NCBI GenBank assembly: GCA_021771915.1
Contig: JAETNY010000002.1
Coordinates: forward strand, 77,825-141,824
Source of the DNA: Bacillota bacterium
GTDB lineage: Bacteria > Bacillota > Dehalobacteriia > UBA4068 > UBA4997
Length of the DNA stretch: 64,000 bases
Direction of reading: 5' to 3'
This document shows, piece by piece, positions 21,572 through 43,663 of this stretch. How positions within the stretch are numbered: position 1 is the stretch's first letter; the number at the start of each line of letters is the position of its first letter. Position numbers and translations under genes: made by a program. Below the pieces are notes generated by a model. The model saw only the letters and a list, made by a program, of their open reading frames with translations, ran no database searches and had not been told where the DNA came from.

Positions 21572-21648
21572 GGCGGTGTAGCTCAGTTGGTCAGAGCACA
21601 CGGTTCATACCCGTGGTGTCACTGGTTCAAATCCAGTCACCGCTACCA
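21572..21648 (+). tRNA. tRNA-Met (CAU anticodon; elongator-type, G1-U72)
   Basis: GGCGGTGTAGCTCAGTTGGTCAGAGCACACGGTTCATACCCGTGGTGTCACTGGTTCAAATCCAGTCACCGCTACCA folds as a cloverleaf. The anticodon loop is TTCATAC and the 3' CCA is encoded. Confidence 0.85.
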
Positions 21649-21651
21649 TTT

Positions 21652-21728
21652 GGCACGTTGGAGAAGCGGCTTAACTCACCAGCCTCTCACGCTGGCATTC
21701 ATGGGTTCGAATCCCATACGTGTCACCA
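21652..21728 (+). tRNA. tRNA-Glu (CUC anticodon)
   Basis: GGCACGTTGGAGAAGCGGCTTAACTCACCAGCCTCTCACGCTGGCATTCATGGGTTCGAATCCCATACGTGTCACCA has the same scaffold as Bacillus tRNA-Glu, but the anticodon loop CTCTCAC gives CUC rather than UUC. It sits 3 nt after tRNA-Met and CCA is encoded. Confidence 0.75.
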
Positions 21729-22726: not shown

Positions 22727-22760
22727 AAAATTAAAAGCCTCTGCTCAATTAGGCAGAGGT
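22727..22760. terminator. bidirectional rho-independent terminator
   Basis: The stem GCCTCTGC / GCAGAGGT pairs with a G-U at the last position. TTTTT follows on the plus strand and there is an A-run on the other side. Confidence 0.5.
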
Positions 22761-23047: not shown

Positions 23048-23407
23048 TTAATCCCAAGCTATTTCTGCGCCATGTTCACGCAAAAAACTGTAAATCTTTT
23101 TTTCATTTTCCACTAAATCACAAATAACCTCGGCAAATTTGGCCGCTTTTAACTCATTTGCCGGCGATAAATCATAATAGGCAACATACATGCCGGCCTC
23201 TGGGTCAGTCTGCATACCCTCCAGCAAATCCGGCGACATCTTCGCCAAATAACAATTCAAAAAGGCTTCCCAATTATATCCATTCATGTAGGCGTTTTCA
23301 TCAAGCGCCTGCATTTTTTCTGCAATGGCAATTATTCTTTCACGCTCAATATCAAACACAACTTCAGTATATTTATCTAAATTCATTTTTTTTACATATT
23401 CATGCAT
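23048..23407 (-). CDS. hypothetical protein (119 aa, acidic, no TM)
   Basis: Clean ORF with an ATG start and no recognisable motif. Confidence 0.4.
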   Translation of the reverse strand: MHEYVKKMNLDKYTEVVFDIERERIIAIAEKMQALDENAYMNGYNWEAFLNCYLAKMSPDLLEGMQTDPEAGMYVAYYDLSPANELKAAKFAEVICDLVENEKKIYSFLREHGAEIAWD

Positions 23408-23482: not shown

Positions 23483-23974
23483 CTATAAAACATGATAATA
23501 TGGGCAAATATCCACAAAACTGCCGTCTTGCAGACGAAAACCGCCAGGAATTGTCCCCAGCTGCACAAAGCCCAAACGCTCATAAAGATGCCGGGCATGG
23601 ACATTACTGGCCACCACCGCATTAAACTGCAATATACCATAGCCCAGTCGCCGCGCCTGCGCCAGACAATCCAAAACAAGTTTTTCACCAATATGCAATC
23701 CCCGACTGTCTGAACACACTGCATAACTGGCGTTGCTGATATGCCCACAACGCCCCTCATTATTGGGGTGCAGAATATAAAGCCCTAATATCCGGCCGCT
23801 TTCAGCGTCCACCGCCACAGCGCTGTATGATTGCGCCGCAAAAAACGCCGCACCAGTTAACTCGTCCAAAACATGCTCCTGCGGAAAGGCAACCCCCTCC
23901 TCCACCACTTCATTCCAAATTGCCAGCATTGCCGGCAAATCATGTTCAGTATATTTTCTCACACTGACACTCAA
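23483..23974 (-). CDS. GNAT family N-acetyltransferase
   Basis: 163 aa with a motif A-like segment IGEKLVLDCLAQARRLGYGILQF and a C-terminal YERLGF. Confidence 0.75.
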   Translation of the reverse strand: MSVSVRKYTEHDLPAMLAIWNEVVEEGVAFPQEHVLDELTGAAFFAAQSYSAVAVDAESGRILGLYILHPNNEGRCGHISNASYAVCSDSRGLHIGEKLVLDCLAQARRLGYGILQFNAVVASNVHARHLYERLGFVQLGTIPGGFRLQDGSFVDICPYYHVL

Positions 23975-24015: not shown

Positions 24016-24774
24016 TCATGCATTATCGGCCGCCATAGCCAAAACAAACTCGGCAAAATGCTCACTCCGCGGACAAACATATTTATGCGGATTTTGCAGC
24101 TGTGCCGCCAATTCCGCATTGGGCAACAAAGCAATATCCGCCTCCTCCAGCATAGGCAAATCCAACTCGCTGTCGCCAGCCGCAACCAGCCGAGAGTTGG
24201 GAAACATTGAGCGCAAACGCTGCACAGCCACACCTTTATTTATATTTGGCGGCAAAAAATAAACCTTACGACCACCACGACACACCTGCAAGCCAGATTT
24301 TAGCGTAAATTCAGCAAAATCAGCCATGCACTTATCCGCTGCCGCCACATCATCGCAAACCACATATAAATAAATCTCATCAACCATATGATGATGAAAA
24401 AGCTGTGCCACATCTAACTGTTCAGTCAGTTTATGCAAAGCCGGCCGAAATTCCGCCGCCAGTTTCAATGACTTCGCTCGCCAGACCACATCAGGCTCAC
24501 CGGCACACAGCAGCAGGCCGCCGTTTGTGGTAACTGCCAGTTCTGGTATACCCAACGGCCAGACAAGCCGCAAATATTGTGCCTGTGAGCGTGTCGTCAC
24601 TGGCACCAGCTGTATATTTTCTGACAGTTGGCGCAGCTGTACCAAAGTTTTAGCTGTTATAAAACTCTGTTCCTGCCCCTCCAAAAGTTCAACGCAAACA
24701 TCGTCTGGCGTACGATGCTTATATGAATAAATAAGCGTGTTATCTAAATCGCAGGCCAAAATTGTTTTCTTCAT
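24016..24774 (-). CDS. HAD-IIB (Cof-type) hydrolase, Ter-island biosynthetic module
   Basis: Motif I is ACDLDNTL and GDSELD sits near the C-terminus. It is the last gene of the co-directional island. Confidence 0.7.
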   Translation of the reverse strand: MKKTILACDLDNTLIYSYKHRTPDDVCVELLEGQEQSFITAKTLVQLRQLSENIQLVPVTTRSQAQYLRLVWPLGIPELAVTTNGGLLLCAGEPDVVWRAKSLKLAAEFRPALHKLTEQLDVAQLFHHHMVDEIYLYVVCDDVAAADKCMADFAEFTLKSGLQVCRGGRKVYFLPPNINKGVAVQRLRSMFPNSRLVAAGDSELDLPMLEEADIALLPNAELAAQLQNPHKYVCPRSEHFAEFVLAMAADNA

Positions 24775-24803
24775 ATATAAATTTTCCCTTAAATTTTCGT
24801 TTA

Positions 24804-25865
24804 TCAGGTATCCGCCAAATTTTTAATTATACCACAGGCTCGATAATTTTGCAGAGGGTAAACCTGCAACTCCACACCCTTTTCCTGAGCCAGCTGATAC
24901 AAATGCCCCAAATGCTCTTCGTCCTGCAAACTGTGCACCAAAACTTTCCAGGGCAAACGGCGCAGCAAAACTCGCGTTGCTTCGCCAATGCCGGGCTTCA
25001 CAAAATTTATATCCACAACATTAAAATCCCGACAAATATTATGCACCTCTGCCATCGCATTCAATTCCGGCGCTGTTTCCGGGCATGTCAAATCAACAGC
25101 CGGCGCCGCATCTGGAAAATGCGCCGCCACTGTATCAATAAATTTATAGGTTAAATCCTGCGCCAGTAAATCCGCATAAAAAGCTGCACCATGAAAATCC
25201 GCCGTTCCAATTATATCATCACGATAAAAAGTGCGGCTTAACAGGCCGGAAACAGTAGAATTTAAGCAGGAACTGGCAATTAAAAAATCATCTCTGGTGC
25301 CATATTCGGCGGCAATACCAGCCGGGTCAGAAAGCACTGCCAGACCTGGATTAACCCCAGGCCAAGCAGAAACGGCTGCTTCCAGTTCGCGCTGAATAGC
25401 CCCCTTGCCCGTCCAACCGTCCACAAATTGGATTTGCTGCGGCTGATGTCTGGCCAGAATATAGCGCAGGGCATTTTCATCAATCCCACGACCACGAATT
25501 ATCGAAATTGTATAATGACTGACCGAATGCTGCATATGTTCTGCAATATAACGCTTCAGCAAAATGCCAATCGGCGTACCGGCACGCGCCAAAGACACAA
25601 TAACCAGTCCCGACCCTTTTTTGGCCCAAATTTTTGTGGCCAACACCGCCACCGCCTGCGCCGTCAGTGGCGAATACATTGCCAACGCCTTAAAAAATGC
25701 GTTCAGATAATCCGGCGAAGGCTCATATTCCAACGGCAACATCTCTGAATAATGCCGCCCACTCTGAATTAAAGCTTCTCGCTCCCGAGTAGGCAGCGGC
25801 TGCACCAAACCGCTGATATCTTTCAACAAAATAGTTACATCTTCCGCCTTATAGGTGCTGAACAT
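24804..25865 (-). CDS. PRTase-like protein of the TerD-associated module (cysteine protease StiP family naming in databases)
   Basis: About 353 aa from MFSTYKAEDV. It has a PRTase-like VIVSLARAGTPIGILL segment and overlaps the upstream PRTase gene end. Confidence 0.5.
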   Translation of the reverse strand: MFSTYKAEDVTILLKDISGLVQPLPTREREALIQSGRHYSEMLPLEYEPSPDYLNAFFKALAMYSPLTAQAVAVLATKIWAKKGSGLVIVSLARAGTPIGILLKRYIAEHMQHSVSHYTISIIRGRGIDENALRYILARHQPQQIQFVDGWTGKGAIQRELEAAVSAWPGVNPGLAVLSDPAGIAAEYGTRDDFLIASSCLNSTVSGLLSRTFYRDDIIGTADFHGAAFYADLLAQDLTYKFIDTVAAHFPDAAPAVDLTCPETAPELNAMAEVHNICRDFNVVDINFVKPGIGEATRVLLRRLPWKVLVHSLQDEEHLGHLYQLAQEKGVELQVYPLQNYRACGIIKNLADT

Positions 25866-27018
25866 TTTGCCCTCCCTGCACATAAAACAACTGCTGACAG
25901 CCCTGCTCACGCAATGCCACCAGTAAATCTGCCAAAGCCAAACGTCCGGCCTCCGTCGCTGTGGTATCGCTTAAAATCACCGCAGCGTCATAAGCAGCCA
26001 GATTATAAATATAGGTTGAACGCTCCGTCGCATAAAAGCTATGCAGACGATAACCATTGCGAATTGGATAACCAGACACCTGGCCAATACCAATCGGACT
26101 GCGCGTGGTTGCATGACAAAACACCTCGCTCGCCCAGCCCAGCCCTGACAACTCCTCGCCCAAAAGCAGTGCCGGATACATAAATTCTTCCGTACCCAGC
26201 AGCAAAATTCTACTGTCTGGCGTAATTTTCCTGGCCAAATGCCGCGCCAAATATTTAGCGTTATCCCGACAATTCTGCTGATACTCGCCAATCATAACCC
26301 CCAGCCGCGTATCCATATAAGGCGCAGCAGCAGTTAAGGCAGTATAATCGGGCAAATCTGCAGGTTCTATCGGCTTCGCTTCAGATACTACAAAATCAGC
26401 GACCGCCTGTTCATAATCCAAAGGTTCCGGCCGCACCAGATATTCACTGCGTAAACCAACGTCTGCCCAAGCCAACTCATTTTCCGGCTGCAAGCGGTTA
26501 ATGATAGAAGCCGCCACCATTTCCTTACCCTGACAGTCCGGGCAAAAATTCTTCAGCTGCGCCACAATATTCAGCAAAGTTTTACCGGTGGAGATTTCAT
26601 CATCAACAAAAATTATCTGCGGTGAATTGGCAACAGCCGCCGACAAATTATCCGCACATAATTTCTGCTCCACCGCATGACTATGCTCCTCCTGAAAATT
26701 CAGCCAGCTTTTAACCTGTGGCATCAACTCTCGCGTAGTTTGCAGATAAACGCAATCCGGCGCCAGACATGCCGCCACCGCCGCACCCAGCGCCGTAGCA
26801 GTTTCCGCAAAACCGATAACCAAGCGCGCCTGCGGATAATGTGCCGCCACCTTTCGGCCTAAACACTGCATCATCTGTAAAGCAGCATCAGGAGCCGACG
26901 GCAAATGCTTAGCCTGCAATGGATTAACCAACAAATAACTGCGCCTGGTATTCTGCCAGCGTTTAGCTAAAAGCAGCACATCGGCTGCGGTATATTTACT
27001 CATCATCAATAATCCCAT
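25849..27018 (-). CDS. phosphoribosyltransferase domain-containing protein (TerD-associated PRTase with C-terminal extension)
   Basis: Type I PRTase PRPP-binding motif IIFVDDEISTGKT, with an extended C-terminal domain. Confidence 0.65.
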   Translation of the reverse strand: MGLLMMSKYTAADVLLLAKRWQNTRRSYLLVNPLQAKHLPSAPDAALQMMQCLGRKVAAHYPQARLVIGFAETATALGAAVAACLAPDCVYLQTTRELMPQVKSWLNFQEEHSHAVEQKLCADNLSAAVANSPQIIFVDDEISTGKTLLNIVAQLKNFCPDCQGKEMVAASIINRLQPENELAWADVGLRSEYLVRPEPLDYEQAVADFVVSEAKPIEPADLPDYTALTAAAPYMDTRLGVMIGEYQQNCRDNAKYLARHLARKITPDSRILLLGTEEFMYPALLLGEELSGLGWASEVFCHATTRSPIGIGQVSGYPIRNGYRLHSFYATERSTYIYNLAAYDAAVILSDTTATEAGRLALADLLVALREQGCQQLFYVQGGQNVQHL

Positions 27019-28048
27019 ATATCTCGGCCAAAACAGCCGTTTTCAAGGCCCAATTGGTATGACATTTTAATTCATTCATGCGTGAACCGTCCGCGCTTTT
27101 AGCCACACCCAAATTATCCGGCAACCAGTCCAGCAAATGCAGCGCATCATCATAATCAGCTCGACTAACCTTAAGGCTGTCATAAATAATCGGCAGCTGC
27201 GCCGGGTGTACCGCCGTTTTGCCAACAAAACCATTCAAACGGTCCAAAGCCAACTCAGCGCGCAGACCTTGCGCCCAGGGCGCAACCGGATTATCACCAA
27301 AATATTCCCAAACCGGACCGGACAGCACATAATCATCAGAAAACATATTAACAATATCGGCCAGAATATCACGCACCACGCTAATTTGATAAATATTCTG
27401 CTGCACACTGCGGCGTAAGCCGAACAAACTGCAAAAATCGTTACAACCAACTCGTACATTCAAAATATATTTCTGGACGCGTGCCAATTCATCTTTAAGC
27501 TGCTGCAAAGCAGGCCGCCGACTAACCAGGTCAGCCAACATTCGACTTTCCAGAATCGGCATGAAATAAAGCGGCCGCTGCCGACCGGCATTTATCTGCC
27601 GAATTAAATCAATATAGGCCGCAGAATTAGACAAATCAAATTTGGGCAGAATATAACCACAAAGCAGTTCAGAAAAATCACCCAAAAATTCCTGAATATG
27701 CTGCAAATGTTGAGGTGTACGCACTCGCACGAACATCAGAGGCAAATTGGCAGACGGCAGATTTTTGGCTTTGATGGCCGCCAAATTACAACAGAGTTCC
27801 AATTCTGCCTGCGGCAAAGCCTCGTCCAGAATAGCGTCTTCCAGACAAAAGGCCAACGATGTCAGACCGGGTATCGCGCCGGCAGCAATTTTATCCGCCA
27901 ATTCCGGATTATATGGCGGAGTATATAAAAGCCCCCCCAACGCATAAGCCAGACGCGTACGTTCATCAAATACACGCAAGCTTCGTATTGTGGTTGAACC
28001 ATGTTGATTTAAGTTTTTTATAGTTAAACTATTCAATGTTGACTCCAT
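26996..28048 (-). CDS. HpcH/HpaI aldolase / citrate lyase beta-subunit-like TIM-barrel protein
   Basis: About 350 aa from MESTLNSL. The sequence is CitE/HpcH-like, and the gene sits where this family is expected in Ter biosynthetic modules. Confidence 0.6.
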   Translation of the reverse strand: MESTLNSLTIKNLNQHGSTTIRSLRVFDERTRLAYALGGLLYTPPYNPELADKIAAGAIPGLTSLAFCLEDAILDEALPQAELELCCNLAAIKAKNLPSANLPLMFVRVRTPQHLQHIQEFLGDFSELLCGYILPKFDLSNSAAYIDLIRQINAGRQRPLYFMPILESRMLADLVSRRPALQQLKDELARVQKYILNVRVGCNDFCSLFGLRRSVQQNIYQISVVRDILADIVNMFSDDYVLSGPVWEYFGDNPVAPWAQGLRAELALDRLNGFVGKTAVHPAQLPIIYDSLKVSRADYDDALHLLDWLPDNLGVAKSADGSRMNELKCHTNWALKTAVLAEIYGIIDDE

Positions 28049-29252
28049 AACTCTCACACAAATGCCGCAAGCCGCTGTGATAGCCGGCGCCGACAAAATT
28101 CATTTTCCATTCACCCTTATAACGATAAATTTCCACGGCCACCGCCGTTTTTTCCTCATAAAGTTCATCAAGTGCAAAACGATATATTTCTTTATCTGCG
28201 CTGAAAATACGCACAACAGCCCCTTTAACCGCTGAAAAACGCTGTGTCTGATTATCGCCATAAATTGAGTAACAAACGGCTATACGCTCCACATCAGCCG
28301 GCGCTTTGGCCAACTCCACCAGTGTCAGCGGACGGTCATTAACCTGACTCATTTTAACAGCGCCGCCCTGTGATTCTGTGTTGCCAAAGAAGATTAAATC
28401 TTCATCACGCCGCACCCGGCCGCCCTGCAACATAAAGCAATAGCCGTCGATATCCAGTTGGGCGTCTTCAGTCTGATATTCCAGAGCAATTTTCAAAACC
28501 GAATTCTGCCATTCCTTAACAGAAAGCCGCTGACCGCGCTTAATATGCTGCACATTGCTGTCGTCAATATCCGGCGCTAACATTTCCAATGGAGCTGTCA
28601 TCTGCACCGGCAGGGAAACCGCCGGCCCATTCGGCACAGCTTGCCCCTCATTATGCACCTGCGCCTCCGTCAACGCCTTGCCAGTTATGTATATGCGCCG
28701 GCTCACCCGGGTTTTCACCATAATTTCACCGTAAAGGATAGTATTATGACGCATTTCGGAAACAGTCAGAGTTATGGTGTTCGCCCCAGGCATCAAGGAT
28801 AATGGCGCCAATCGAACACCACGCACATTACATTCCAGCTGTGCGGCAGCCGCAGCTTCAAGTTGCAGCGTAAAAGTATTTTCAGTATCGGCGGCAAAAT
28901 TGCCAAGCGCAATCAAACCGGGCAAAGTCCAGTTCTCCGCTTCTGGCGCAAAGCCGCAAACCGCCCCCTTGACCTCCACATTCTCCAGATTAATGCTATC
29001 CGGATTGCCGGCCTGAAACTGCAACGCCGTACCGGCCCCATTATCACCACCAGCCAGTTCAATCCGCAGATTTTTTATCGTCACATTATCCGCTGCGATT
29101 GTCAGAACCGGACCGTCAGCAGACCAAAGCGTAGCGTTACCGCCGTCAAACACGCCAGGCCGGTCTATCAGCAGCGGCCCCTGATATTCACCGGGAGCCA
29201 GCAAAAAATCTCCCGTCTTATTCGCATTAAATTGTTCCTGTATATTTTCCAT
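28029..29252 (-). CDS. fusion protein: N-terminal ~210 aa domain of unknown function (repetitive beta-rich) + C-terminal TerD domain
   Basis: ATG at 29250-52 with a GAGGGA RBS. The C-terminal 190 aa (LSVKEW ... DIDGYCFMLQGG ... GEWKMNFVGAGYHSGLRHLCESYGVNIE) is collinear with the three canonical TerD proteins downstream. Confidence 0.65.
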   Translation of the reverse strand: MENIQEQFNANKTGDFLLAPGEYQGPLLIDRPGVFDGGNATLWSADGPVLTIAADNVTIKNLRIELAGGDNGAGTALQFQAGNPDSINLENVEVKGAVCGFAPEAENWTLPGLIALGNFAADTENTFTLQLEAAAAAQLECNVRGVRLAPLSLMPGANTITLTVSEMRHNTILYGEIMVKTRVSRRIYITGKALTEAQVHNEGQAVPNGPAVSLPVQMTAPLEMLAPDIDDSNVQHIKRGQRLSVKEWQNSVLKIALEYQTEDAQLDIDGYCFMLQGGRVRRDEDLIFFGNTESQGGAVKMSQVNDRPLTLVELAKAPADVERIAVCYSIYGDNQTQRFSAVKGAVVRIFSADKEIYRFALDELYEEKTAVAVEIYRYKGEWKMNFVGAGYHSGLRHLCESYGVNIE

Positions 29253-29353
29253 AAAAATATCCCTCAAGCCCAAATTGCATTATTTCACATAAAGCGCCTA
29301 CACCGGGAATGTAAGCGCTTTATTTTATTAACAGAATAATTTTTCAGGAAAAA

Positions 29354-29938
29354 TCAAACATTTACGCCATAAGTGCGGCACAAAGCCTCCAGACCACCCT
29401 GATAGCCAGCGCCAACCGCGTTGAACTTCCAATCATCGCCGTTTTTATAAATCTCACATACCACCAGCGCCGTTTCAATGGAGAACTCCTCTGCCAAATC
29501 AAATTTCAAAACTTCAGTCCCGACCATATCGTTTTCATTAGCCATACGCGCCACACGCACATAAGCGTTTGAAACCTGACCAAAATTCTGACTGCGTTCC
29601 TGCGCATCATAAATTGTTACAGTAATAGCAATTTTCTGAATATCAGAAGGCACTTTGGAAAAGTCAATGATTAAAACTTCATCATCACCATCGCCCTCGC
29701 CGGTAAGATTATCGCCAGTATGGCGCACAGAACCGTCAGAACTTTTCAAGTTACCATAGAAAATAAAATCTTCATCTTTGCGCACCTTGCCATCTGCATT
29801 CAACAAAAATGCTGAAGCGTCCAGGTCAAAATCCTTGCCGCCGTCATAACGGTTAGTATCCCAACCCAAACCAATAAGCGCCATATTCATATTTTTATCC
29901 AGACTTACGCGCTGGCCTTTTGCCAAATTAACACCCAT
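29354..29938 (-). CDS. TerD family stress protein
   Basis: 194 aa with the [13 protein letters not shown] calcium-binding-type motif and [25 protein letters not shown]. Confidence 0.85.
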
Positions 29939-29967
29939 TATTTATGCCTCCATTCCTGATATAATTT

Positions 29968-30558
29968 TTATACAAAGCGATTTGCCAATTCGCCTAAACC
30001 ATTATCACGTGTGCCCTGGCCAATAGCATTAAATTTCCATTCATTATTATAACGATACAGTTCGCCAAAAATCATAGCGGTCATGCCGTCATAATTTTCA
30101 GAAAGATTGTATTTGCACATTTCCTGATTATTATCCGCATCAACAATACGAATAAATGCATTTTCAATCATGCCAAAATGCTGCTTACGCTGGGCAGCCT
30201 GATAGATGTTAACAACGACAACCAGCTTATCATACTGGCTGGGCATGGAAGCCAAATCCACCATAATCTGCTCATCATCACCTTCGCCGGCGCCGGTCAG
30301 GTTATCACCCATATGCCGGATACAGCTAGATTTATGCGTTAAATTACCAAAATATACGATATCATCGGTACCCATCAAATGACCATTAACACAAACAAAA
30401 ACTGAAGCGTCACAGTCAATATCCTGAGGCTTGGGAGCAAAAAAACCTCTTTTTTGCTTAACCTCGTCCCAGCCCAAACCAACCATAACCCGGCGCAGAG
30501 CACCGCCATCTTCCTTACGTAGATTAACTTTCTGACCTTTTTGCAAATTAACAGACAT
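29968..30558 (-). CDS. TerD family stress protein
   Basis: 196 aa with GDNLTGAGEGDDE and [21 protein letters not shown]. Confidence 0.85.
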   Translation of the reverse strand: MSVNLQKGQKVNLRKEDGGALRRVMVGLGWDEVKQKRGFFAPKPQDIDCDASVFVCVNGHLMGTDDIVYFGNLTHKSSCIRHMGDNLTGAGEGDDEQIMVDLASMPSQYDKLVVVVNIYQAAQRKQHFGMIENAFIRIVDADNNQEMCKYNLSENYDGMTAMIFGELYRYNNEWKFNAIGQGTRDNGLGELANRFV

Positions 30559-30622
30559 TCTTTATTCTCCCTTTCCCTATTTTTTCACAATATATTTGTA
30601 TCACATAGTAAATGTTTAATAA

Positions 30623-31303
30623 TTAACTGTTACTAACCGTCGTCCCCAGCCATTGCCGAAAAGACGATGGATTTCTGGTTTGAATTAAAACCACACCCGG
30701 CCCCCGAAAACGGCAAACCAGACACTCGCCGGACATCCAGCTGGAAATCCAACCATTGGAAGCCTTTTCAATCTTATAATTCATATAATCCGGCCAGGCT
30801 ACCAAATGGCCGTTATCCACAATATACTCCTCATTATCAGCCAGATTAATAGCATGAATAGCGCCATAGCTGCTTAAAAATACTGTACCGCGGCCGCTGA
30901 CGTTTACCACGAAAAAGCCCTCTCGAGAAAACAGTCCCTGCGCCAGATTTTGCATAGCCGTATCCACCTGAATACCATCTGTGGCGGCCAAAAAACCAGT
31001 TTTTTGCACACGCAAACTATAACTGCCATCTAATTCCACATCAATAATGCCGCCTGGCGCCGGATGTCCCAGCAAAACCGAGCCGTCACCCCTGGCTGCA
31101 TCAATCGTCTGGAAGAAAAAACTCTCTCCGGTAAGCATGCGTCGCGCCAAACCGCCCAGCAGGCCGCCGTTCATACTGCCGCTGATTTCCAAAGTGGCCG
31201 ACATCGCCACCATGGCGTCAGACTCTGCTTTAATTTTTTCCCCTCGCTGCATCTCACACTTAACCAGCGGAAAAGCATCTTTATACAGAATTTCATATTT
31301 CAT
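30623..31303 (-). CDS. TIGR00266 / AIM24 (DUF124) family protein
   Basis: 226 aa. This family commonly co-occurs with TerD genes. Confidence 0.65.
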   Translation of the reverse strand: MKYEILYKDAFPLVKCEMQRGEKIKAESDAMVAMSATLEISGSMNGGLLGGLARRMLTGESFFFQTIDAARGDGSVLLGHPAPGGIIDVELDGSYSLRVQKTGFLAATDGIQVDTAMQNLAQGLFSREGFFVVNVSGRGTVFLSSYGAIHAINLADNEEYIVDNGHLVAWPDYMNYKIEKASNGWISSWMSGECLVCRFRGPGVVLIQTRNPSSFRQWLGTTVSNS

Positions 31304-31347
31304 TCAGCTTGCCCTACTTTCTGCCTGATAATCAGTAAATATTTTAA

Positions 31348-31926
31348 TTATACGTTTACGCCAAAATTCTGGCAGAGCGCCTGCAGACCACCCTGGAAAC
31401 CGCTGCCAATAGCGTTAAACTTCCATTCGCCATTATTGCGATACAGTTCGCCAACCACCACAGCTGTTTCAACCGAAAAATCTTCGCCCAAATCATAACG
31501 AACCAGTTCGGTATTATTGGCTTCATCAACAATACGGATAAATGCGTTGGAAACCTGACCAAAATTCTGGCGGCGTTCCTCTGCCTCATAAATAGTTACC
31601 GTAAAATCAATCTTTTCTACAGTTTCCGGCACTTTGCTCAAATCAATCTTAATTTCTTCATCGTCGCCCTCGCCCTCGCCGGTCAGGTTATCGCCCAGAT
31701 GCTCCACAGAACCAGAAGCGTGTTTCAAATTACCATAGAATACGAAGTCACTATCACTGGCGGTTTTACCGTCGCCGCCCAGCAGAAATGCCGCTGCGTC
31801 CAAGTCAAAATCGGAGCCACCATCATAGCGGTTGGTATCCCAGCCCAAACCTACCAACAAGTTGCATAAACCAGGATTACCCTTGGTAAGGTCAACCTTC
31901 TGTCCTTTTGTCAAACTAACTGCCAT
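31348..31926 (-). CDS. TerD family stress protein
   Basis: 192 aa from [11 protein letters not shown] (ATG 31924-26, AGGAGG RBS) with [13 protein letters not shown] and [18 protein letters not shown]. The longer ORF in the track starts upstream without an RBS. Confidence 0.85.
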
Positions 31927-32045
31927 AATTATATCCTCCTGAATTAATTTATTTCCTGCGGTACAAACCGCTGGATAATCAAAATTTTTATTCAATTTTC
32001 TCTACATATTAAATTGTAATACATTTTATCATAAATTTCAACACT

Positions 32046-34649
32046 TTATTGCTTTTTGCCCATAATCAATTTGCGAATAATATCCAAAGGAATTACCATA
32101 AAGGCCAAACCGGCACAAATCAGCCAGGCCGAGGGAGCCAAACTCTCCACGCTTAAAACGCTGCCGCCAAAAGTTACAAAAACAAACTGCAAAATAAAGA
32201 TAGAAAGCATTACCCAGATAAAATTCTTGTTGCGGTTAATGCCAGACAACACGTTAACATGGCTGGTTCTGGCGTTGAAGCCATTAAAGGTTATCGCCAT
32301 CATGAATGTGGCAAACAGAGCCGATTTCAAATAGGTGGTATCCACATCGCCAAACAGGTTGCGGATAGCCGGCACGAAAAGAATAGCCAGACAAATAAAA
32401 GTGATATATAAAGCGCCGATAATAATTTCCAGCATCATATCCTTGCTGATAATACTGGCCGAACGCGCAATCGGCTTTTCATGCATATATTCTTCCAGGG
32501 CCGGCTCGCTGCCAAAAGCAATAGCAGCCAGCGTGTCCATCGCCAGGTTAACCAGCAGCAGCTGAATAACCGTCATAACCACATTTTCACCCAACAGAGG
32601 GCCGATAAAGCAGGTTAAAACCGCCGCCACATTAACCGTCAGCTGGAAAATCAAGAACTTACGGATACTCTTAAACATCGTGCGGCCATACAAAATAGCC
32701 TTACGGATAGAAGCAAAATTATCGTCCAGAATAGTAATATCACCGGCCTCTTTGGCCACCTCCGTGCCGCTGCCCATAGCAAAACCCACGTCAGCCTTTT
32801 TCAGCGCCGGAGAGTCGTTAACACCGTCGCCAGTCATGCCAACCACCAGATTAAGTTCCTGAGCCACACGCACCAGACGGCTTTTATCCGTTGGCAAAGC
32901 ACGCGAAACCACACGCAAATGCGGCAAAATCTGCTTTAACTCATCATCACTCTTAGACGCCATTTCAGCGGAGGTCAAAGCAACATCATTGGGGCTTTGC
33001 AGCAAACCAGCTTCTTTGGCAATCGCAACCGCCGTTTCCTTGCGGTCGCCCGTAACCATAACCACCTGCACGCCGGCATTCTGCACATCTTTAATCGCCG
33101 CCACCGCTTCTTTACGCACATTATCGCGGATACTCAACACACAAATCAACGTCAGATTGGCGTCGTCCTGTTCACCGTCCACCATGGCCACAGCCAGCAA
33201 ACGCATAGAGCGCCCGGCCTGCTTGTCCATATAGGCATTAAGCGCAGTTTTTTCATTCAGCGTCTGGCGTTTGCCCTGCGCATCAATATAATGTGTACAA
33301 CGCTCAATAATTTTTTCCGGCGCACCCTTAACAAACGTCACCAGCTGACCGTTATCCGGCCGGCGCATCGTTACGCTGGAACTTTTTTTATTGGAGTCAA
33401 ATGCGTTAAAGCACTGAACATTATCTTTATTAATTTTATCCGCCTGGCCGGCCTCCTGCAAAAAGGCCAGCAAAGCACGGTCCGTACTGTTACCGCCAAT
33501 AATATTGCCATCGCTCAACGCCGCACTGTTATTAACGCCAATACCGTTCAGCAAATCCGCTGCCATGGCCGGGGACAACTCAGAAAAATTTTCCCAGGTC
33601 TGCAAATCACCGTTAGCCAACTCCACCACAGAAAGCCGACCCTCGGTTATCGTACCGGTTTTATCGCTGAAAAGAATGCTCAAACTGCCGGCAGTTTCCA
33701 AACCATTTATTTTGCGCACCAATACATTATCTTTAGCCATTTTCAAGCTTTGGAAAGAGAGCAGGATAGAGGTCAGCATCGGCAGACCCTCTGGCACAGC
33801 GCAAACGATAATCGTTACGGCCACCGTCACCGCGTCCATAATCAGCCTAATCCATTGATAAATATCGCCAGGCATGCTGCCGCTGATTAAAGTTTTGGCA
33901 ATAATGCCCAAAACAATACAAATTGCGCCGATATAACCAAATGTAGAAATCTGTTTAGCCAGCTTACCCAGCTTAACCTGTAAAGGCGTTTCGCGCGTAT
34001 CCTCCTGCACTTCCAGCGCCAACTCGCCAAAAAGCGTCTGGTCGCCCACCACCTTAATCTGCATATGAGCTTCGCCGCCGCAAACCACCGTGCCGCGATA
34101 TGCATAACAGGGATTCAGCAAATCCTTAACATCATAAGCCGCACCCTGCACATTAGGCTGTTTATCTGCTTCTTCTGTTTCACCGTTCAAAGCGGCCTGG
34201 TCAACCTTAACGCCGCCTTCCACGATTTCACCGTCCGCCGGAATTTTATCGCCAGCCTGCAAATAAACAATATCACCTACCACAACCTCGCTGACATGGA
34301 TTTCCTCCAGTTTGCCGTCGCGTATCACTTTGGCCATTTCTTTGGCTTCTTCCTCCGCTTTAAGCGCTGAGGCCTTGCCCTCCTGCTTACTTTCACTGAT
34401 AGAAGCCACGCCGTTGGCAATCATAATTGCCACCAAAATGCCCACCGGCTCAAACCATTCGGCTTGTCCCATAAAGAACAGAACCACCTGCACCACCAGA
34501 GCCACCAGCAAAATCATAATCATTGGGTCTTTAAAACCCTCTAAAATCTTCTTCCACAAAGGATCTGGCGGAATTTGCGTCAGCGTATTGGCGCCATGTT
34601 GTTTACGGCTTTCCTCCACCTGCGACGCAGATAAACCATTCAATTTCAT
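32046..34649 (-). CDS. calcium-translocating P-type ATPase (P2-type)
   Basis: P-type ATPase motifs SDKTGTITEG (phosphorylation site), CAVPEGLP (ion site), TGDGVNDSPALKKADVGFAMG and TGDRKETAVAIA. The start is taken at MKLNGLSASQV with a GAAAGGAAG RBS. Confidence 0.85.
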   Translation of the reverse strand: MKLNGLSASQVEESRKQHGANTLTQIPPDPLWKKILEGFKDPMIMILLVALVVQVVLFFMGQAEWFEPVGILVAIMIANGVASISESKQEGKASALKAEEEAKEMAKVIRDGKLEEIHVSEVVVGDIVYLQAGDKIPADGEIVEGGVKVDQAALNGETEEADKQPNVQGAAYDVKDLLNPCYAYRGTVVCGGEAHMQIKVVGDQTLFGELALEVQEDTRETPLQVKLGKLAKQISTFGYIGAICIVLGIIAKTLISGSMPGDIYQWIRLIMDAVTVAVTIIVCAVPEGLPMLTSILLSFQSLKMAKDNVLVRKINGLETAGSLSILFSDKTGTITEGRLSVVELANGDLQTWENFSELSPAMAADLLNGIGVNNSAALSDGNIIGGNSTDRALLAFLQEAGQADKINKDNVQCFNAFDSNKKSSSVTMRRPDNGQLVTFVKGAPEKIIERCTHYIDAQGKRQTLNEKTALNAYMDKQAGRSMRLLAVAMVDGEQDDANLTLICVLSIRDNVRKEAVAAIKDVQNAGVQVVMVTGDRKETAVAIAKEAGLLQSPNDVALTSAEMASKSDDELKQILPHLRVVSRALPTDKSRLVRVAQELNLVVGMTGDGVNDSPALKKADVGFAMGSGTEVAKEAGDITILDDNFASIRKAILYGRTMFKSIRKFLIFQLTVNVAAVLTCFIGPLLGENVVMTVIQLLLVNLAMDTLAAIAFGSEPALEEYMHEKPIARSASIISKDMMLEIIIGALYITFICLAILFVPAIRNLFGDVDTTYLKSALFATFMMAITFNGFNARTSHVNVLSGINRNKNFIWVMLSIFILQFVFVTFGGSVLSVESLAPSAWLICAGLAFMVIPLDIIRKLIMGKKQ

Positions 34650-34785
34650 AAAATTCTTCCTTTCATAATTCATAATATTGCCATGAGTGTACTATATTAT
34701 ATAGCTTACACAATAAATATAAACTCAACATGACAAATTATTTATATTTTGGTAAGATTTTTGTAAAGTTTAAGTAAATTTCGGC

Positions 34786-36252
34786 TTATCTTCCACATGA
34801 AACCTCAGCCACCAACCCCTTTTCCGCATCAGACAAACGGAAAATCGCGCCGTCTTTCAGCATCACCGCCTGCCCTGGCGGTACCAGATTACCGCTGGGC
34901 GAAGTCATACCCTGAATATTTTGGTTAACCAACAACCATTTACCCTGAAATTTACAGACATAAGCCATCAATTCCCTATCCGTTTTTTCGTCCGGGAAAG
35001 TATTAGCCAAAATATGCCATTTAAATATCGGCATATTATGATAAAGCACAACCTCGCCGGCATTCGCCCACTGGCCATGGCTGGCGCGTAACTGACTTTT
35101 CAGATGCAGACGCACAATATTTTCCTGCTTTATGCGGTGGCCGCAAAACGGACAAACCGGGTTTTTCGTATCATACAAAACAAACCATTTGGCTGCGCAC
35201 ATTGGATTCTCACAGGGGTGCAGCATATCCCAGGTCTTAACCAGACCCTTTTCCCATTCCAGCGCCGTCGGCCGCTCGTCCGGGTTATGCAGACCGTCCA
35301 CAAAAGCGCGCAAAAACAGGCGCTCCAAATGCGGCCCCAAATCCTTAATCTGCACATGCAAATCCGGCGGTCGATTACTAAAATCGGTGGGGTGTTCAAT
35401 AAACAAGGCCTTTTCACCCAAAGCCAGAAAATCATCACGCTCGGCAGAAGTAAAATCATAAACTTTCGGCCCCAGCAAAGGGTGGCGCAACAGCAAATAT
35501 TCATAAATCAACACCGGCAGGGCGTGCAAATCCGTATAAGCACTGGGCAGCACACGGTCATGAAAACGCACGCTGCTGGCCAAAACCTCTGGCGCTATAT
35601 AACCGCGCGTCCCCACCACCTCCGGCGGAAACAGCCCCGGCACCACCAAAGAATCAATATCAATAACCACGCAGCCCCCGGTTTTGGGGTCAATCAACAC
35701 ATTATTGCAGGACAAATCAGAATGAGCCAGTCCGGCCTGATGCATACGACGAATTGAACGTGCCAGCGAGATAGACATTTGCAGCATGGAGCAAAAATCG
35801 CCAACCTCCGGCAGATTTAAATATTTGCGGCTGCTGGAAGTAAACCAGGTACTGCGCTTATCACGCCCCTGCAAATCAAGCATATCTGAAGCTTCAGCAT
35901 CAAAAAAGAAATTGGCAGGATATGCCGGGCAAACAATACCAAACTCCGGCTCGGCCACAATGGCCGTTGGCCAGCAGAAACGGCCGGCAAAATAATTGGC
36001 TATCTGCTCGCTGTTGCCGCGCGCACCGCCGTCCTGCTCAGACCTGGTTGGATTATACTTGCCGATAATCGCCTCCAGACGCTTGCGAATGTTGGGGTCC
36101 TGCGCCGTTTCCGGGTCATTAAAAAACTGCACAACATAAGATTTGTCCGGCGCAAAATAGGTATATTTCATACCGCCACGCGGTGGGTTATCCTTAATCA
36201 CATAGGGAATTTTACGTCCATCAGTCAATGTGGCTTCTGCTAAAACGCCCAT
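34786..36252 (-). CDS. TerY-P-type Ser/Thr protein kinase-like protein with C-terminal zinc ribbon and FHA-like tail
   Basis: The kinase core has HSDLSCNNVLID (catalytic loop), DIDSL (DFG-like) and GTRGYIAPEV (APE). CENPMC ... CPFCGH forms a zinc ribbon and the C-terminus is FHA-like. AAGGAGG RBS. Confidence 0.6.
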   Translation of the reverse strand: MGVLAEATLTDGRKIPYVIKDNPPRGGMKYTYFAPDKSYVVQFFNDPETAQDPNIRKRLEAIIGKYNPTRSEQDGGARGNSEQIANYFAGRFCWPTAIVAEPEFGIVCPAYPANFFFDAEASDMLDLQGRDKRSTWFTSSSRKYLNLPEVGDFCSMLQMSISLARSIRRMHQAGLAHSDLSCNNVLIDPKTGGCVVIDIDSLVVPGLFPPEVVGTRGYIAPEVLASSVRFHDRVLPSAYTDLHALPVLIYEYLLLRHPLLGPKVYDFTSAERDDFLALGEKALFIEHPTDFSNRPPDLHVQIKDLGPHLERLFLRAFVDGLHNPDERPTALEWEKGLVKTWDMLHPCENPMCAAKWFVLYDTKNPVCPFCGHRIKQENIVRLHLKSQLRASHGQWANAGEVVLYHNMPIFKWHILANTFPDEKTDRELMAYVCKFQGKWLLVNQNIQGMTSPSGNLVPPGQAVMLKDGAIFRLSDAEKGLVAEVSCGR

Positions 36253-36331
36253 AAAAATGCCTCCTTACACATATCACACCTTTTAACAGTTTTTGGTGTA
36301 TATTATCAGGAAAATATATCAATAAAACAAC

Positions 36332-37555
36332 CTAACGAGTAAATATCACTAAGGTTCTATCATCAAAAGAACCGCGTTCCACATAATTATCCAGCCAGAC
36401 TTTGAGCTGCTCCGCCGCATTTTCAGCCGCAGCGCCGGCCAACTCCAAATGCGCCAATTTCAGCACCGTCTGCTCCTGCCAGATATCAGCCAGCGACAGA
36501 CTCAGCGCCTCACAAATCCGTCTGGTATATTGCACCGGCACCTTAATATTCTGGTCATTAACCCAGGGAAACGCCAGCGGACTGGGAATTTGCTTAAACA
36601 GTTTAAGCTGCTCCGGCGTCAAATCATTCAACGCTAACTGCCCACCGGCAAAAGGCAGCACGCCATTCAACAACAGATCAAAATATAAGCGCTGCAACTC
36701 CGTTTCATTGGGGAAATAATCGTCAGAAACACCGTCCGTCATCAAAAACAGCTTGTCCAAAGCGCCACAGAAAACACGAGTTCGGCTTTGCAGGTTTTCC
36801 AGATTTTGCATTTGCGACGAAGTTAAAAAATCTGTTTCCCCAGAAAAATCACCACTATCCGGCGTACCCAGCAATTTTAAGGCATTTGCAAAATCAGCGT
36901 CAGAATTAATAACCGCAATCATACCATCGCCAACCTGACACGACACAACCAGACAATCCTTGCTAAGGGGCGAAAGCGGAACCACCACGGCCAGCAGCAA
37001 TGTGGCCGAGAAATCCTTAAACTGCAAATCACGCCCCAACACAGCGGAATATGCCAAATCCGCCGCACGCGTATAAAAAGCAGCCTCCACCGCACCATAA
37101 GCCCTCAAAACCGCCTGCTGCACCAAACCGGCCAAACGATTAGTCAACTGTGCCGTATCATTTGTATCCACTGGCTTGTCCTGCGTCAAATTATGCAGAA
37201 GATAACCCAAAGCCGCCCGACAAGATTCTCTTGCGCCAATCCGGGAAAATTTCCTGGAACCGGCGCCGTCGGCAACCGCCAACAGCGTTATACCGTCCAA
37301 ATTAGCAACCTCATACCAGTCATCACAATTTGAACCGTCATGTTTGTGTTTTTTGCCGCGTACTCGTGCCGCAATCACCCTGCCATCTGGCAAGTCCCTT
37401 TCCTGCTGTATATACTCCGGAAAAGGTTCCGGTTCAGCCTGCGGTATATCCTGATATTTCCATAAAGCCGCCGTATGCGCCAAAACCTCATCATCACTCA
37501 ACGACTTGGCGTCCGGCGCGGCCGGCGCGGCCGGTAAAAGTTCCAAATCCGCCAC
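36332..37555 (-). CDS. PP2C-family protein phosphatase (TerY-P triad member)
   Basis: LLAVADGAGS metal-binding motif and a GDGMIAV segment. The start is probably a GTG 7 nt after AAGGAGG. Confidence 0.6.
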   Translation of the reverse strand: MADLELLPAAPAAPDAKSLSDDEVLAHTAALWKYQDIPQAEPEPFPEYIQQERDLPDGRVIAARVRGKKHKHDGSNCDDWYEVANLDGITLLAVADGAGSRKFSRIGARESCRAALGYLLHNLTQDKPVDTNDTAQLTNRLAGLVQQAVLRAYGAVEAAFYTRAADLAYSAVLGRDLQFKDFSATLLLAVVVPLSPLSKDCLVVSCQVGDGMIAVINSDADFANALKLLGTPDSGDFSGETDFLTSSQMQNLENLQSRTRVFCGALDKLFLMTDGVSDDYFPNETELQRLYFDLLLNGVLPFAGGQLALNDLTPEQLKLFKQIPSPLAFPWVNDQNIKVPVQYTRRICEALSLSLADIWQEQTVLKLAHLELAGAAAENAAEQLKVWLDNYVERGSFDDRTLVIFTR

Positions 37556-37676
37556 CAAAATCCCTCCTTATCATACCATAGAAACAAGTTTTTTCTTTTC
37601 ACCACAAATTGCACTATGATATTTGTTCATAAACGGCTCAATCATCGTCTATGGCTCGATTTTGCCGATATTCACA

Positions 37677-38324
37677 TCAGGGAACCACCACAAACCCCTG
37701 CGGCGGCGGTGGCAGTTCAATCGGCGCACCAGGCGCCGCATCAATACTTTTTGAAGACATTTTAATCGAACCGGAAACCCAGGCAAAAAACTGAGCCATA
37801 TCACCAGCTGACAGGGTATTCATCATTAACACACTTTCGGTAATCTGTTTCAAATAGGAAGTTTTAGCGCTGGAACCGGCTGCACAAGCAATAATATTAG
37901 CCGTTTTAACCATAGAAAGCTTTTTAACAGCATGGTTAAACTCCTCAATATCCGTCGGAGAACCGTCCGTCAGTATAAAAACAAGAGGTCGCCAATCACC
38001 CTTTTGCGTTTCGGTTGATTTACGGACCTCCGTATCAATACAATCAATAAGCACATTCAAAGCACCGCCCAAAGCCGTAGCGCCACTGGCATGTAAATCG
38101 GGTTCCTTAAAAAGCATCAGTTCTGTCAATGGCATAACCTGCCGGGCGGAACTATCAAATGTAATTACAGAAAGATAAGCCGTTTCCAGCGCCTGTGGGT
38201 CACCACGCAACTCTGAAATCAGCGCTTTAACACCCTGCTTAACCGCTTCAATAGGCTCGCCCACCATTGAACCGGAGCAATCCAAAAGCAGATATACCGG
38301 TAATCTGCGCACATAATTTGCCAT
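37677..38324 (-). CDS. vWA domain protein, TerY-like
   Basis: 215 aa with the MIDAS motif LLDCSGSM and a later ILTDGSPTD segment. It is the first gene of the island operon. Confidence 0.7.
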   Translation of the reverse strand: MANYVRRLPVYLLLDCSGSMVGEPIEAVKQGVKALISELRGDPQALETAYLSVITFDSSARQVMPLTELMLFKEPDLHASGATALGGALNVLIDCIDTEVRKSTETQKGDWRPLVFILTDGSPTDIEEFNHAVKKLSMVKTANIIACAAGSSAKTSYLKQITESVLMMNTLSAGDMAQFFAWVSGSIKMSSKSIDAAPGAPIELPPPPQGFVVVP

Positions 38325-38481
38325 AGATTTTTAGCCTCCAATCAAAATAATCAGAAAAATATAAAAGCTACAATACTATAACAATATTTTAGCACACCGA
38401 TGACCGATAATCAATAACTTTTCATATAAATTGGCTTTCTATCCAAATTTTTTTCTTCATATTATAATATAAGTTTTAATT

Positions 38482-38640
38482 TCAGGCGCTCAATGGCCAG
38501 AAAATCACCCCGGCCAGTATAAACCAACTGCAAATTGCCGCCTTGTTAGCAGCCCCCGGTTGACGCAGCTTTTCCGGTGCCCAAATCACAGCCAAAACTG
38601 TCAGCAAAGCAAATAGCATAAATCTTATAACAAAGCCCAT
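38482..38640 (-). CDS. small hydrophobic protein (about 52 aa, 2 predicted TM); the longer 79-aa ORF is less likely
   Basis: A GAGGGG RBS lies 8 nt upstream of the internal ATG (MGFVIRFMLFALLTV...). Confidence 0.3.
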   Translation of the reverse strand: MGFVIRFMLFALLTVLAVIWAPEKLRQPGAANKAAICSWFILAGVIFWPLSA

Positions 38641-38743
38641 ATAAATCGCCCCTCTGCACTGCCCTGTTTTATAACATAGCTTATGCCGCAAGCCTGGCAA
38701 AGGTGTGATTTTTCCTGACAAAACCTAAAAGATACTTACGATT

Positions 38744-38951
38744 ACCTGTTGACTGACTTCGCCTGTATTTATTTTACAACAGCAATTCCATTTGGTTAAC
38801 AGCACAATCGACCAGCCGCTACCCTAAAGGGGCGGCTGGTCGAAATGGTTCACACTAAGCTCTGTCTGCGTCCACTAAAGTGGCCTTGCCAATCGCTAAG
38901 TGTTCATACAAAAAAGGAACTCTCTGCCAGGCAAAGAGTTCCTTTATTATT
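38744..38951 (+). ncRNA. candidate small RNA / structured element between a promoter-like site and a terminator (strand uncertain)
   Basis: TTGACT at 38744-49, then about 150 nt with no ORF. This stretch contains a perfect 12-bp hairpin (TCGACCAGCCGC ... GCGGCTGGTCGA, around 38808-38846). It ends with a 15-bp terminator hairpin at 38914-38944 plus a T-run. Confidence 0.25.
38908..38951. terminator. bidirectional rho-independent terminator (main terminator of the SLH gene on the minus strand)
   Basis: Stem AAGGAACTCTCTGCC / GGCAAAGAGTTCCTT (one mismatch). There are six T on the minus-strand side and TTTATTATTT on the plus side. Confidence 0.65.
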
Positions 38952-38992
38952 TGCTAGATATGCCGAATATCAGCGAAAAATCATTAAACTAA

Positions 38993-43654: not shown

Positions 43655-43663
43655 GCCGGTAAG

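Follow-up and report, generated by a model that had tools for sequence, protein, structure and literature searches.

A thirteen-gene Ter-type island with a predicted biosynthetic module in an uncultured member of the Bacillota

The stretch of DNA analyzed in this work (64,000 nucleotides of a Bacillota contig, referred to below as the window) carries a Ter-type island of 13 genes that extends over ~14.3 kb of the minus strand (24016-38324). From 5' to 3', and all in the same orientation, the genes encode a vWA protein, a PP2C phosphatase, a kinase, an ATPase, a TerD protein, an AIM24 protein, two further TerD proteins, a TerD fusion protein, a C-C bond lyase, a PRTase_2 phosphoribosyltransferase, StiP, and a HAD phosphatase. 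The locus, from a gut Firmicute resembling the Peptococcaceae, is a genuine, unexceptional example of the Ter system, whose role in stress and defense has long been predicted. In a preliminary description, made from the nucleotide sequence, the unit had been limited to nine co-directional genes at 24016-31995. All nine open reading frames (ORFs) are present on the minus strand, but this interval is the downstream two-thirds of a larger unit; four further genes (P-type ATPase, Ser/Thr kinase, PP2C, and vWA) lie directly upstream on the same strand and belong to the same conserved island.

The questions of what the Ter module produces and what TerD senses go back to 2012, and for the ter phenotypes toward phage, colicin, and tellurite they go back to the 1990s. 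It is very probable that the locus described here is a Ter-type island equipped with the predicted biosynthetic module. Two kinds of evidence carry this assignment, which had already been proposed in the preliminary description: the proteins match the expected families, and the enzyme block travels with TerD in other genomes. Both the module and the TerD/AIM24 cluster were predicted by Anantharaman, Iyer, and Aravind (2012, Mol Biosyst 8:3142), whose work is known here through secondary citations.

Gene content of the island

All coordinates of island genes given below refer to the minus strand. Gene starts were taken from the gene calls of public assemblies together with ribosome-binding sites, with five starts shifted inside the maximal ORFs. 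Searches with the Pfam models of the families named at the outset matched each of the nine ORFs at 24016-31995 to its predicted family far above the gathering score, with E-values ranging from 9e-11 (HAD) to 1e-102 (StiP).

The downstream end of the island is formed by four enzyme genes, whose original family assignments all stand. A C-C bond lyase of the TIM-barrel HpcH/CitE type (346 amino acids, 26996-28036) matches Pfam C-C_Bond_Lyase (PF15617) with an E-value of 3e-96 and finds only weak matches in the PDB, to citrate lyase beta and malyl-CoA lyase. It is followed by a phosphoribosyltransferase of 384 amino acids (25849-27003) composed of PRTase_2 (PF15609, E 1e-43) and TRSP (PF12500, E 2e-20) domains, in which the phosphoribosyl pyrophosphate (PRPP) loop IIFVDDEISTGKT is intact at residues 130-142. 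The second PRTase-type gene (24804-25865) encodes a protein of 353 amino acids with StiP (PF11202, formerly PRTase_1, E 1e-102) and PELOTA_1 (PF15608, E 1e-29) domains. The last gene (24016-24774) specifies a HAD-IIB (Cof-type) phosphatase of 252 amino acids, recognized above cut-off by both Hydrolase_3 (E 9e-11) and TIGR01484 (49.9 bits, cut-off 41.8). A sequence search of the PDB returned no solved relatives of PRTase_2-TRSP or StiP, the only match of StiP being a marginal one to eL8.

Putative catalytic motifs are maintained across homologs in all four enzymes. An alignment of lyase homologs from the fetched loci described below shows conservation of E66, D67, R104, R106, E163, and D200, and PRTase_2-TRSP keeps its PRPP loop (DE..TG.T) as well as invariant GFAETAT, TTRE, EEHSH, and TTRSP motifs, the last of which gave TRSP its name. 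StiP conserves SLARAG, a PRPP-loop-like QFVDGWxGKGAI, and the invariant residues C200 and H225; in the HAD phosphatase the conserved elements are DLDNT (DxDxT) at residue 9, T60, K170/K180, and GD...D at 200-205. The Pfam models PRTase_2/TRSP, StiP/PRTase_1, PELOTA_1, and C-C_Bond_Lyase derive from the work of Anantharaman, Iyer, and Aravind.

The ATP-grasp amidoligase of the five-enzyme form is not found among the island genes or the annotated ORFs of the window, and the same ORFs include no TerC, TerB, or TelA gene, as had been noticed initially. The locus had for this reason been regarded as a minimal or variant form, a view that is not retained: the form without ATP-grasp is common in Firmicutes. 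A four-enzyme form of this kind is described in PMC11994780 for Bacillus altitudinis 3W19, in a passage according to which two- to four-enzyme forms need no ATP-grasp, and the absence of this gene alone is therefore not special.

Upstream of the fusion gene lie three canonical TerD paralogs. These proteins, which had been recognized as TerD by their length of ~190 amino acids and their Ca2+ motifs, all match the Pfam TerD model. The first (192 amino acids, 31348-31926 rather than up to 31995, E 1.7e-86) has an ATG start preceded by a GGAGG ribosome-binding site and an intact Ca2+ loop; the second (196 amino acids, 29968-30558, E 5e-73) and the third (194 amino acids, 29354-29938, E 5e-77) retain the loop as well. 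In the alignment, the acidic loop of the canonical TerDs reads GDNLTGEG(D/E)GDDE, and in the second paralog it takes the form GDNLTGAGEGDDE. The loop of TerD1-3 is identical to the Ca2+-binding motif of Klebsiella pneumoniae TerD (2KXT), with which TerD3 aligns over its full length (E 4e-65), as it does with Streptomyces coelicolor TerD (3IBZ, E 3e-62). Including the fusion, the four TerD-domain proteins of the island score 123-289 bits against PF02342, whose gathering cut-off is 25.3. Between the first and second paralogs, the predicted TIGR00266/AIM24 gene (226 amino acids, 30623-31303) was recovered with both models above their cut-offs (AIM24 PF01987, E 8e-71, 238 bits; TIGR00266, 166 bits, cut-off 96.6); the PDB relatives of its product are 1pg6 and 1yox.

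Frequent overlaps of 4-20 nt had been reported for the nine-gene block. With corrected starts, overlaps occur at three junctions only, namely fusion/lyase (8 nt), lyase/PRTase_2 (8 nt), and PRTase_2/StiP (17 nt), and the remaining junctions of the block are gaps of 29-101 nt. The four-enzyme block is partly translationally coupled.

The part of the island that had been left out begins with a P-type ATPase gene (32046-34649, 867 amino acids as called). Its product scores 620 bits against the TIGR01517 equivalog of PMCA-type Ca2+-translocating ATPases (cut-off 507), contains the motifs DKTGT329, PEGL286, GDGVND607, and KGAPE441, and is by family a predicted PMCA-type Ca2+ pump. Next upstream is a Ser/Thr kinase gene (34786-36252; Pfam Pkinase, E 8e-9), in whose translation an HSDLSCNN catalytic loop and DID and APE motifs can be read, together with a predicted C-terminal zinc ribbon of the form C-x4-C...C-x2-C (CENPMC...CPFC, ~residues 346-369) and a tail of ~115 amino acids for which no Pfam match was obtained. 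A PP2C-family phosphatase (~407 amino acids, 36332-37558; PP2C_2, E 7.5e-37) and a TerY-like vWA protein (215 amino acids, 37677-38324; VWA, E 1e-12) complete the set. The vWA protein carries a metal-ion-dependent adhesion site motif DCSGS (DxSxS) at residues 15-19, and its gene, the first of the three, is preceded by a GGAGG ribosome-binding site and an extended -10 promoter-like site. By domain composition, vWA, PP2C, and kinase are assigned to the TerY-P triad, which is defined in PMC11090510 with a kinase bearing a C-terminal zinc ribbon.

In one assembly of the same species (L003, positions 1-2400, from Logan SRR26686114, corresponding to ~37600-39000 of the window), the island proteins are 99-100% identical, and the vWA gene and a small upstream ORF are replaced by an ORF of 553 amino acids with no Pfam match. 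This strain lacks the vWA protein, which shows that not all members of the species carry the TerY-like gene.

The fusion protein, genomic distribution, and setting

The fourth TerD protein had been described as a fusion to a new domain. The fusion is real, but the added part consists of two known folds and belongs to a widespread unannotated family. Three domains make up the protein (407 amino acids, 28029-29252): a short right-handed beta-helix (~1-105), a PapD/ASH-like immunoglobulin (Ig) sandwich (~108-195), and, after a linker, a TerD domain (~236-407) that lacks the Ca2+ loop. Pfam recognizes only the TerD part (residues 244-409, E 1e-35), which is preceded by an N-terminal extension of 235 residues and in which, according to the alignment, a 7-residue deletion removes the acidic loop. 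A Foldseek comparison of the structural model of the fusion retrieved the TerD structures 3ibz and 2kxt, and weak sequence matches to NosD and pectinesterase agree with the beta-helix assignment. The lack of an obvious signal peptide suggests that the protein is probably cytoplasmic.

The fusion family is conserved, with full-length homologs down to ~30-43% identity; the nearest homolog in a named genome comes from an uncultured Peptococcaceae metagenome-assembled genome (96% identity). No full-length fusion was found on the plasmids of PLSDB, where only the TerD domain is matched. No Pfam model covers the beta-helix/Ig module. A profile of the N-terminal 200 residues (28653-29252 of the window, minus strand) was compared with 1.84 billion representatives of 50%-identity clusters and retrieved 810 clusters at E <= 1e-3. 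Among the best 150 of these, TerD is the fusion partner in 85, located before or after the module, and vWA in two (P0194, P0197). The other partners in this best-scoring set are long Beta_helix/NosD regions (P0206, P0244), Sel1 (P0219), TPR (P0245), and extensions with no Pfam match (P0214, P0236, P0254). The N-terminal module is thus built from known folds, yet represents a widespread family that lacks annotation and associates markedly with Ter components.

Conservation of the gene order, which the preliminary description had proposed to examine, was assessed in 76 genome loci searched with the window proteins by tblastn. Peptococcaceae, Lachnospiraceae, Oscillospiraceae, Acutalibacteraceae, and unclassified Clostridia share the full order from vWA through HAD, whereas in Ruminococcus and Selenomonadaceae the island is present with its genes rearranged. 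Among cultivable bacteria, related islands are carried by Selenomonas bovis DSM 23594, Selenomonas sp. ND2010, and Clostridium tetani ATCC 19406. The full-length fusion is present at 53 loci, 41 of which have at least 5 kb of downstream flank and 38 at least 9 kb of upstream flank. Downstream of the fusion, PRTase_2, StiP, and HAD were found in 27/41 loci and the lyase in 26/41. On the upstream side, PP2C is present in 33/38 loci, vWA and the ATPase in 31/38 each, the full triad in 26/38, and AIM24 in 20/38.

A complementary survey started from the enzymes, using a PRTase_2 profile against metagenome contigs, and yielded 33 independently fetched loci with sufficient flank. StiP and HAD each accompany PRTase_2 in 32 of the 33, the lyase in 24, at least one TerD in 23, and a P-type ATPase in 17. 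The four-enzyme block is a very stable unit that is usually, but not always, linked to TerD. An idea that the preliminary description had kept open, namely that these genes are ordinary nucleotide-salvage and citrate-lyase genes standing beside TerD by chance, is effectively refuted: adenine PRTase and RipC/CitE models give only very weak matches (E ~8e-4, well below cut-offs), the Ter-module Pfam families match at E 1e-20 to 1e-102, and across families the four genes move as a block in the company of one another and of TerD, instead of sitting in salvage or citrate-lyase operons.

Three further observations were made on these loci. A different layout, TerD-TerD-TerD-P-type ATPase-PRTase_2-StiP-HAD, is common in metagenomes (L101, L103, L111, L120, L121, L123, L164, and others); its ATPase is ~44% identical to that of the window and abuts the enzymes directly, the fusion is missing, and often the lyase as well. 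Two PRTase_2 homologs (L010, 12287-13441; L035, 13233-14369) contain one internal stop codon each and may be pseudogenes or assembly errors. In the phage collection, the single PRTase_2 match lies on a faecal scaffold (L087, MT836648.1, deposited as 'UNVERIFIED: Bacteriophage sp.') with PRTase_2-StiP, a lyase, and three TerD genes, which resembles a piece of a bacterial Ter locus more than a phage genome.

The boundaries of the island were suggested by promoter and terminator scans, which consist of consensus matches and were used solely for this purpose. On the upstream side, a strong terminator-like hairpin (38913-38945, minus strand), with a 15-bp stem followed by a T run, ends the gene of an SLH protein and marks the limit. 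The first convincing terminator-like site downstream (22738-22759, minus strand) is located past three further ORFs, and the consensus scan of the minus strand found no strong terminator between 38913 and 22759. Directly 3' of the HAD gene, with no terminator in between, are a GNAT acetyltransferase (23483-23974, minus strand) with a weak ArsN1-like match and an Imm51 polymorphic-toxin immunity protein (23048-23407, minus strand). Together with an ORF of 90 amino acids, they are kept only in the closest Peptococcaceae relatives (L009-L011) and are treated as lineage-specific passengers. Beyond the passengers, toward the DHHW/amidase/nuo region, there are two neighboring tRNA genes (21572-21725, plus strand), with no integrase near them.

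Between the SLH-gene terminator and the vWA gene, an ORF of 52 amino acids (38482-38640, minus strand) with two predicted hydrophobic helices (MGFVIRFMLFALLTVLAVIW...ICSWFILAGVIFWPL) is called as a gene in most assemblies of the same species. A perfect GC-rich hairpin (CGACCAGCCGC...GCGGCTGGTCG, 38808-38842, minus strand) occupies the intergenic region upstream of this ORF and matched no Rfam family. The rest of the 64 kb window contains the nuo operon, housekeeping genes, and unrelated functions, as well as four sizeable ORFs (285, 226, 369, and 225 amino acids) with no Pfam match, at 42797-44344, 51707-52816, and 63197-63874 on the plus strand. The identical locus occurs in >250 assembly blocks from public metagenomes, in the same chromosomal setting next to the nuo operon, and the GC content of the island is similar to that of the flanks. 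A mobile-element origin was considered; no integrase or transposase was seen, and no other defense genes adjoin the island.

Proposed mechanism and its alternatives

The mechanism considered here combines the chemistry of the enzyme superfamilies with the model of Anantharaman, Iyer, and Aravind. The published model treats the module enzymes as signal biosynthesis (PMC7824862; see also PMC8115787). In the present island, the pump would hold cytosolic Ca2+ low, and a rise in Ca2+ or other metals would follow when the envelope is damaged, with phage, pore-formers, and toxic oxyanions as examples of the cause. The TerD paralogs would bind Ca2+, and the vWA/kinase/phosphatase triad would turn the rise into a phosphorylation signal. 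The enzyme block could then ribosylate a small base- or acid-like precursor from PRPP, with the lyase making or tailoring this precursor, and the HAD enzyme would strip the 5'-phosphate; the small molecule released, nucleoside-like in nature, would serve as a signal or an effector. In systems without TerB and TerC, the Ca2+-blind fusion may serve as an adaptor or ligand receptor that joins the TerD assembly to the enzymes. The role of connector is suggested by the overlap of its gene with the first enzyme gene and by the recurrence of its N-terminal module on TerD and vWA proteins.

The specific scheme of Ca2+ trigger and messenger is put forward tentatively and is on balance rather unlikely to be correct. 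As a single statement, the Ter-type island with its module plus the Ca2+-trigger/messenger scheme is somewhat favored. A stronger version is improbable: in it, the island would be a self-contained Ca2+-signaling immune or stress circuit in which the PMCA pump sets the resting state, TerD and TerY-P detect a breach of the envelope, a new PRPP-derived nucleoside-like messenger is the output, and the beta-helix/Ig module acts as messenger receptor, replacing TerB in Firmicute systems devoid of TerC and TerB.

Several points weigh against the proposed scheme. No experimental evidence was found in the literature for any step in this organism or for a product in any organism; as stated from the beginning, the product is still treated there as a prediction. 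The Ca2+ trigger is deduced only from the pump family and the TerD loop. The role of StiP as a second PRTase is uncertain because the current Pfam name of PF11202, cysteine protease StiP, goes back to work on Acinetobacter baylyi to which PMC11994780 refers, and because C200 and H225 are invariant; transferase and protease are both candidate roles. None of the four enzymes was found in 11/41 fusion loci, and 10/33 enzyme blocks have no TerD within 9 kb, so that the parts can function separately. In PADLOC, the 13 island proteins gave no meaningful match and only marginal ones for the triad and the enzymes; vWA and PP2C were unmatched, and the kinase matched generic kinase models only. Finally, Rfam at gathering thresholds yielded four tRNAs only across the whole window, and no riboswitch or leader RNA therefore accounts for regulation.

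An anti-phage abortive-infection island is one alternative, in which the PRTase-type enzymes would be toxic effectors, activated by TerY-P/TerD, that deplete PRPP or disturb the nucleotide pools in the manner of ShosT and the retron type III-A PRTase effectors, without making a signal. PRTase effectors are known from ShosTA and Retron-Eco11, TerY-P-like triads are mentioned in PMC11090510 as stand-alone defense systems (citing Gao 2020), enterobacterial ter loci inhibit phage according to PMC12054061, and an Imm51 immunity gene lies nearby. PRTase_2 itself finds the retron PRTase_III-A model of PADLOC, but the match is marginal (E 6e-4) and restricted to the PRPP loop, and the rest of the island has no defense-model match. 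The conserved HAD phosphatase and C-C lyase, present in 32 and 24 of the 33 enzyme loci, are more in keeping with biosynthesis in several steps than with a toxin that acts by depletion, and the stable chromosomal setting beside the nuo operon, with neither an integrase nor other defense genes, also argues against this alternative, which we consider improbable.

About as improbable is a module devoted mainly to calcium homeostasis or buffering, with the pump and the TerDs handling Ca2+ loads (e.g., during sporulation or gut Ca2+ fluxes) and the enzymes making a metabolite unrelated to signaling. A PMCA-type pump is indeed part of the island and accompanies TerD in more than one gene arrangement, three TerDs retain the Ca2+ loop, and co-occurrence of TerD genes with a Ca2+-ATPase gene in gut jumbo phages is reported in PMC12880540. 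Buffering, however, needs neither a kinase/phosphatase/vWA switch nor PRPP-using enzymes, and the TerD most tightly coupled to the enzymes is the one that has lost the loop. The island is moreover present in the Selenomonadaceae, which are not known to form spores.

Tellurite or oxyanion resistance in the narrow sense, as for terZABCDEF, is considerably less probable than either. TerD and StiP homologs are tied to tellurite resistance in other bacteria (PMC11994780, PMC12054061), but TerC, which PMC12054061 places in the minimal TerC-TerD unit of E. coli, is absent from the window, as are TerB and TelA, and tellurite would be an improbable natural selection on an anaerobic gut Firmicute.

The locus contributes several points. 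The Ca2+ hypothesis is strengthened by the union, in one compact and conserved island that lacks TerC and TerB, of a Ca2+ pump with Ca2+-binding TerDs, with a kinase/phosphatase switch, and with the enzymes. The island offers a compact construct for heterologous metabolomics (~5 kb for the enzymes, ~14 kb for the whole), and cultivable relatives have been identified as carriers of related islands. The domain family that accompanies Ter components and has so far no annotation merits a named profile of its own. By itself, this uncultured instance leaves the question of product and trigger not decisively more testable.

Comparison with known systems

The associations of TerD with the enzymes, of TerD with AIM24, and of TerY-P with Ter, as well as all the families concerned, are already part of the 2012 description according to the secondary sources PMC11994780, PMC11090510, PMC5822837, and PMC7824862. 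The island shares with the 2012 Ter module and with Bacillus altitudinis 3W19 the same enzyme families in the same order and several adjoining TerD paralogs; it also shares with the 2012 module the link between AIM24 and TerD, which is reported in PMC5822837 with reference to Anantharaman 2012. Unlike these forms, it is devoid of TerB, TerC, YceG, and TelA, which are also absent from the rest of the window, includes a PMCA-type pump together with a TerY-P triad among its co-oriented genes, and bears the beta-helix/Ig-TerD fusion at the junction with the enzymes.

The enterobacterial ter locus (terZABCDEF with the 'biosynthetic' operon that contains terXYW, on IncHI2 plasmids and in E. coli O157 and Klebsiella) resembles the island in the Ca2+ loop of TerD, the TerY-type vWA protein, and a putative biosynthetic operon with HAD. 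In contrast, TerC and TerB form its center, it resides on plasmids or islands, and it is organized as two divergent operons. The TerY-P triad of CoCoNuT types II and III-A and of the stand-alone system of Gao et al. (2020) comprises the same three domains in the same order, including the zinc ribbon of the kinase. In the present island, its neighbors are a Ca2+ pump, TerD, and the enzyme genes instead of nucleases or McrBC, and its kinase has the additional ~115-residue tail. At the level of single proteins, TerD1-3 are full-length homologs of 2KXT and 3IBZ with an identical Ca2+-binding motif, whereas the fourth TerD domain is devoid of the acidic loop and carries an N-terminal extension.

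Compared with the 2012 description as conveyed by the secondary sources, the Clostridial form is distinguished by its single co-oriented island, the absence of TerC, TerB, and TelA, and the fusion protein. The unannotated domain family at the N-terminus of this fusion is the one element that might justify ranking the island as a novel form.

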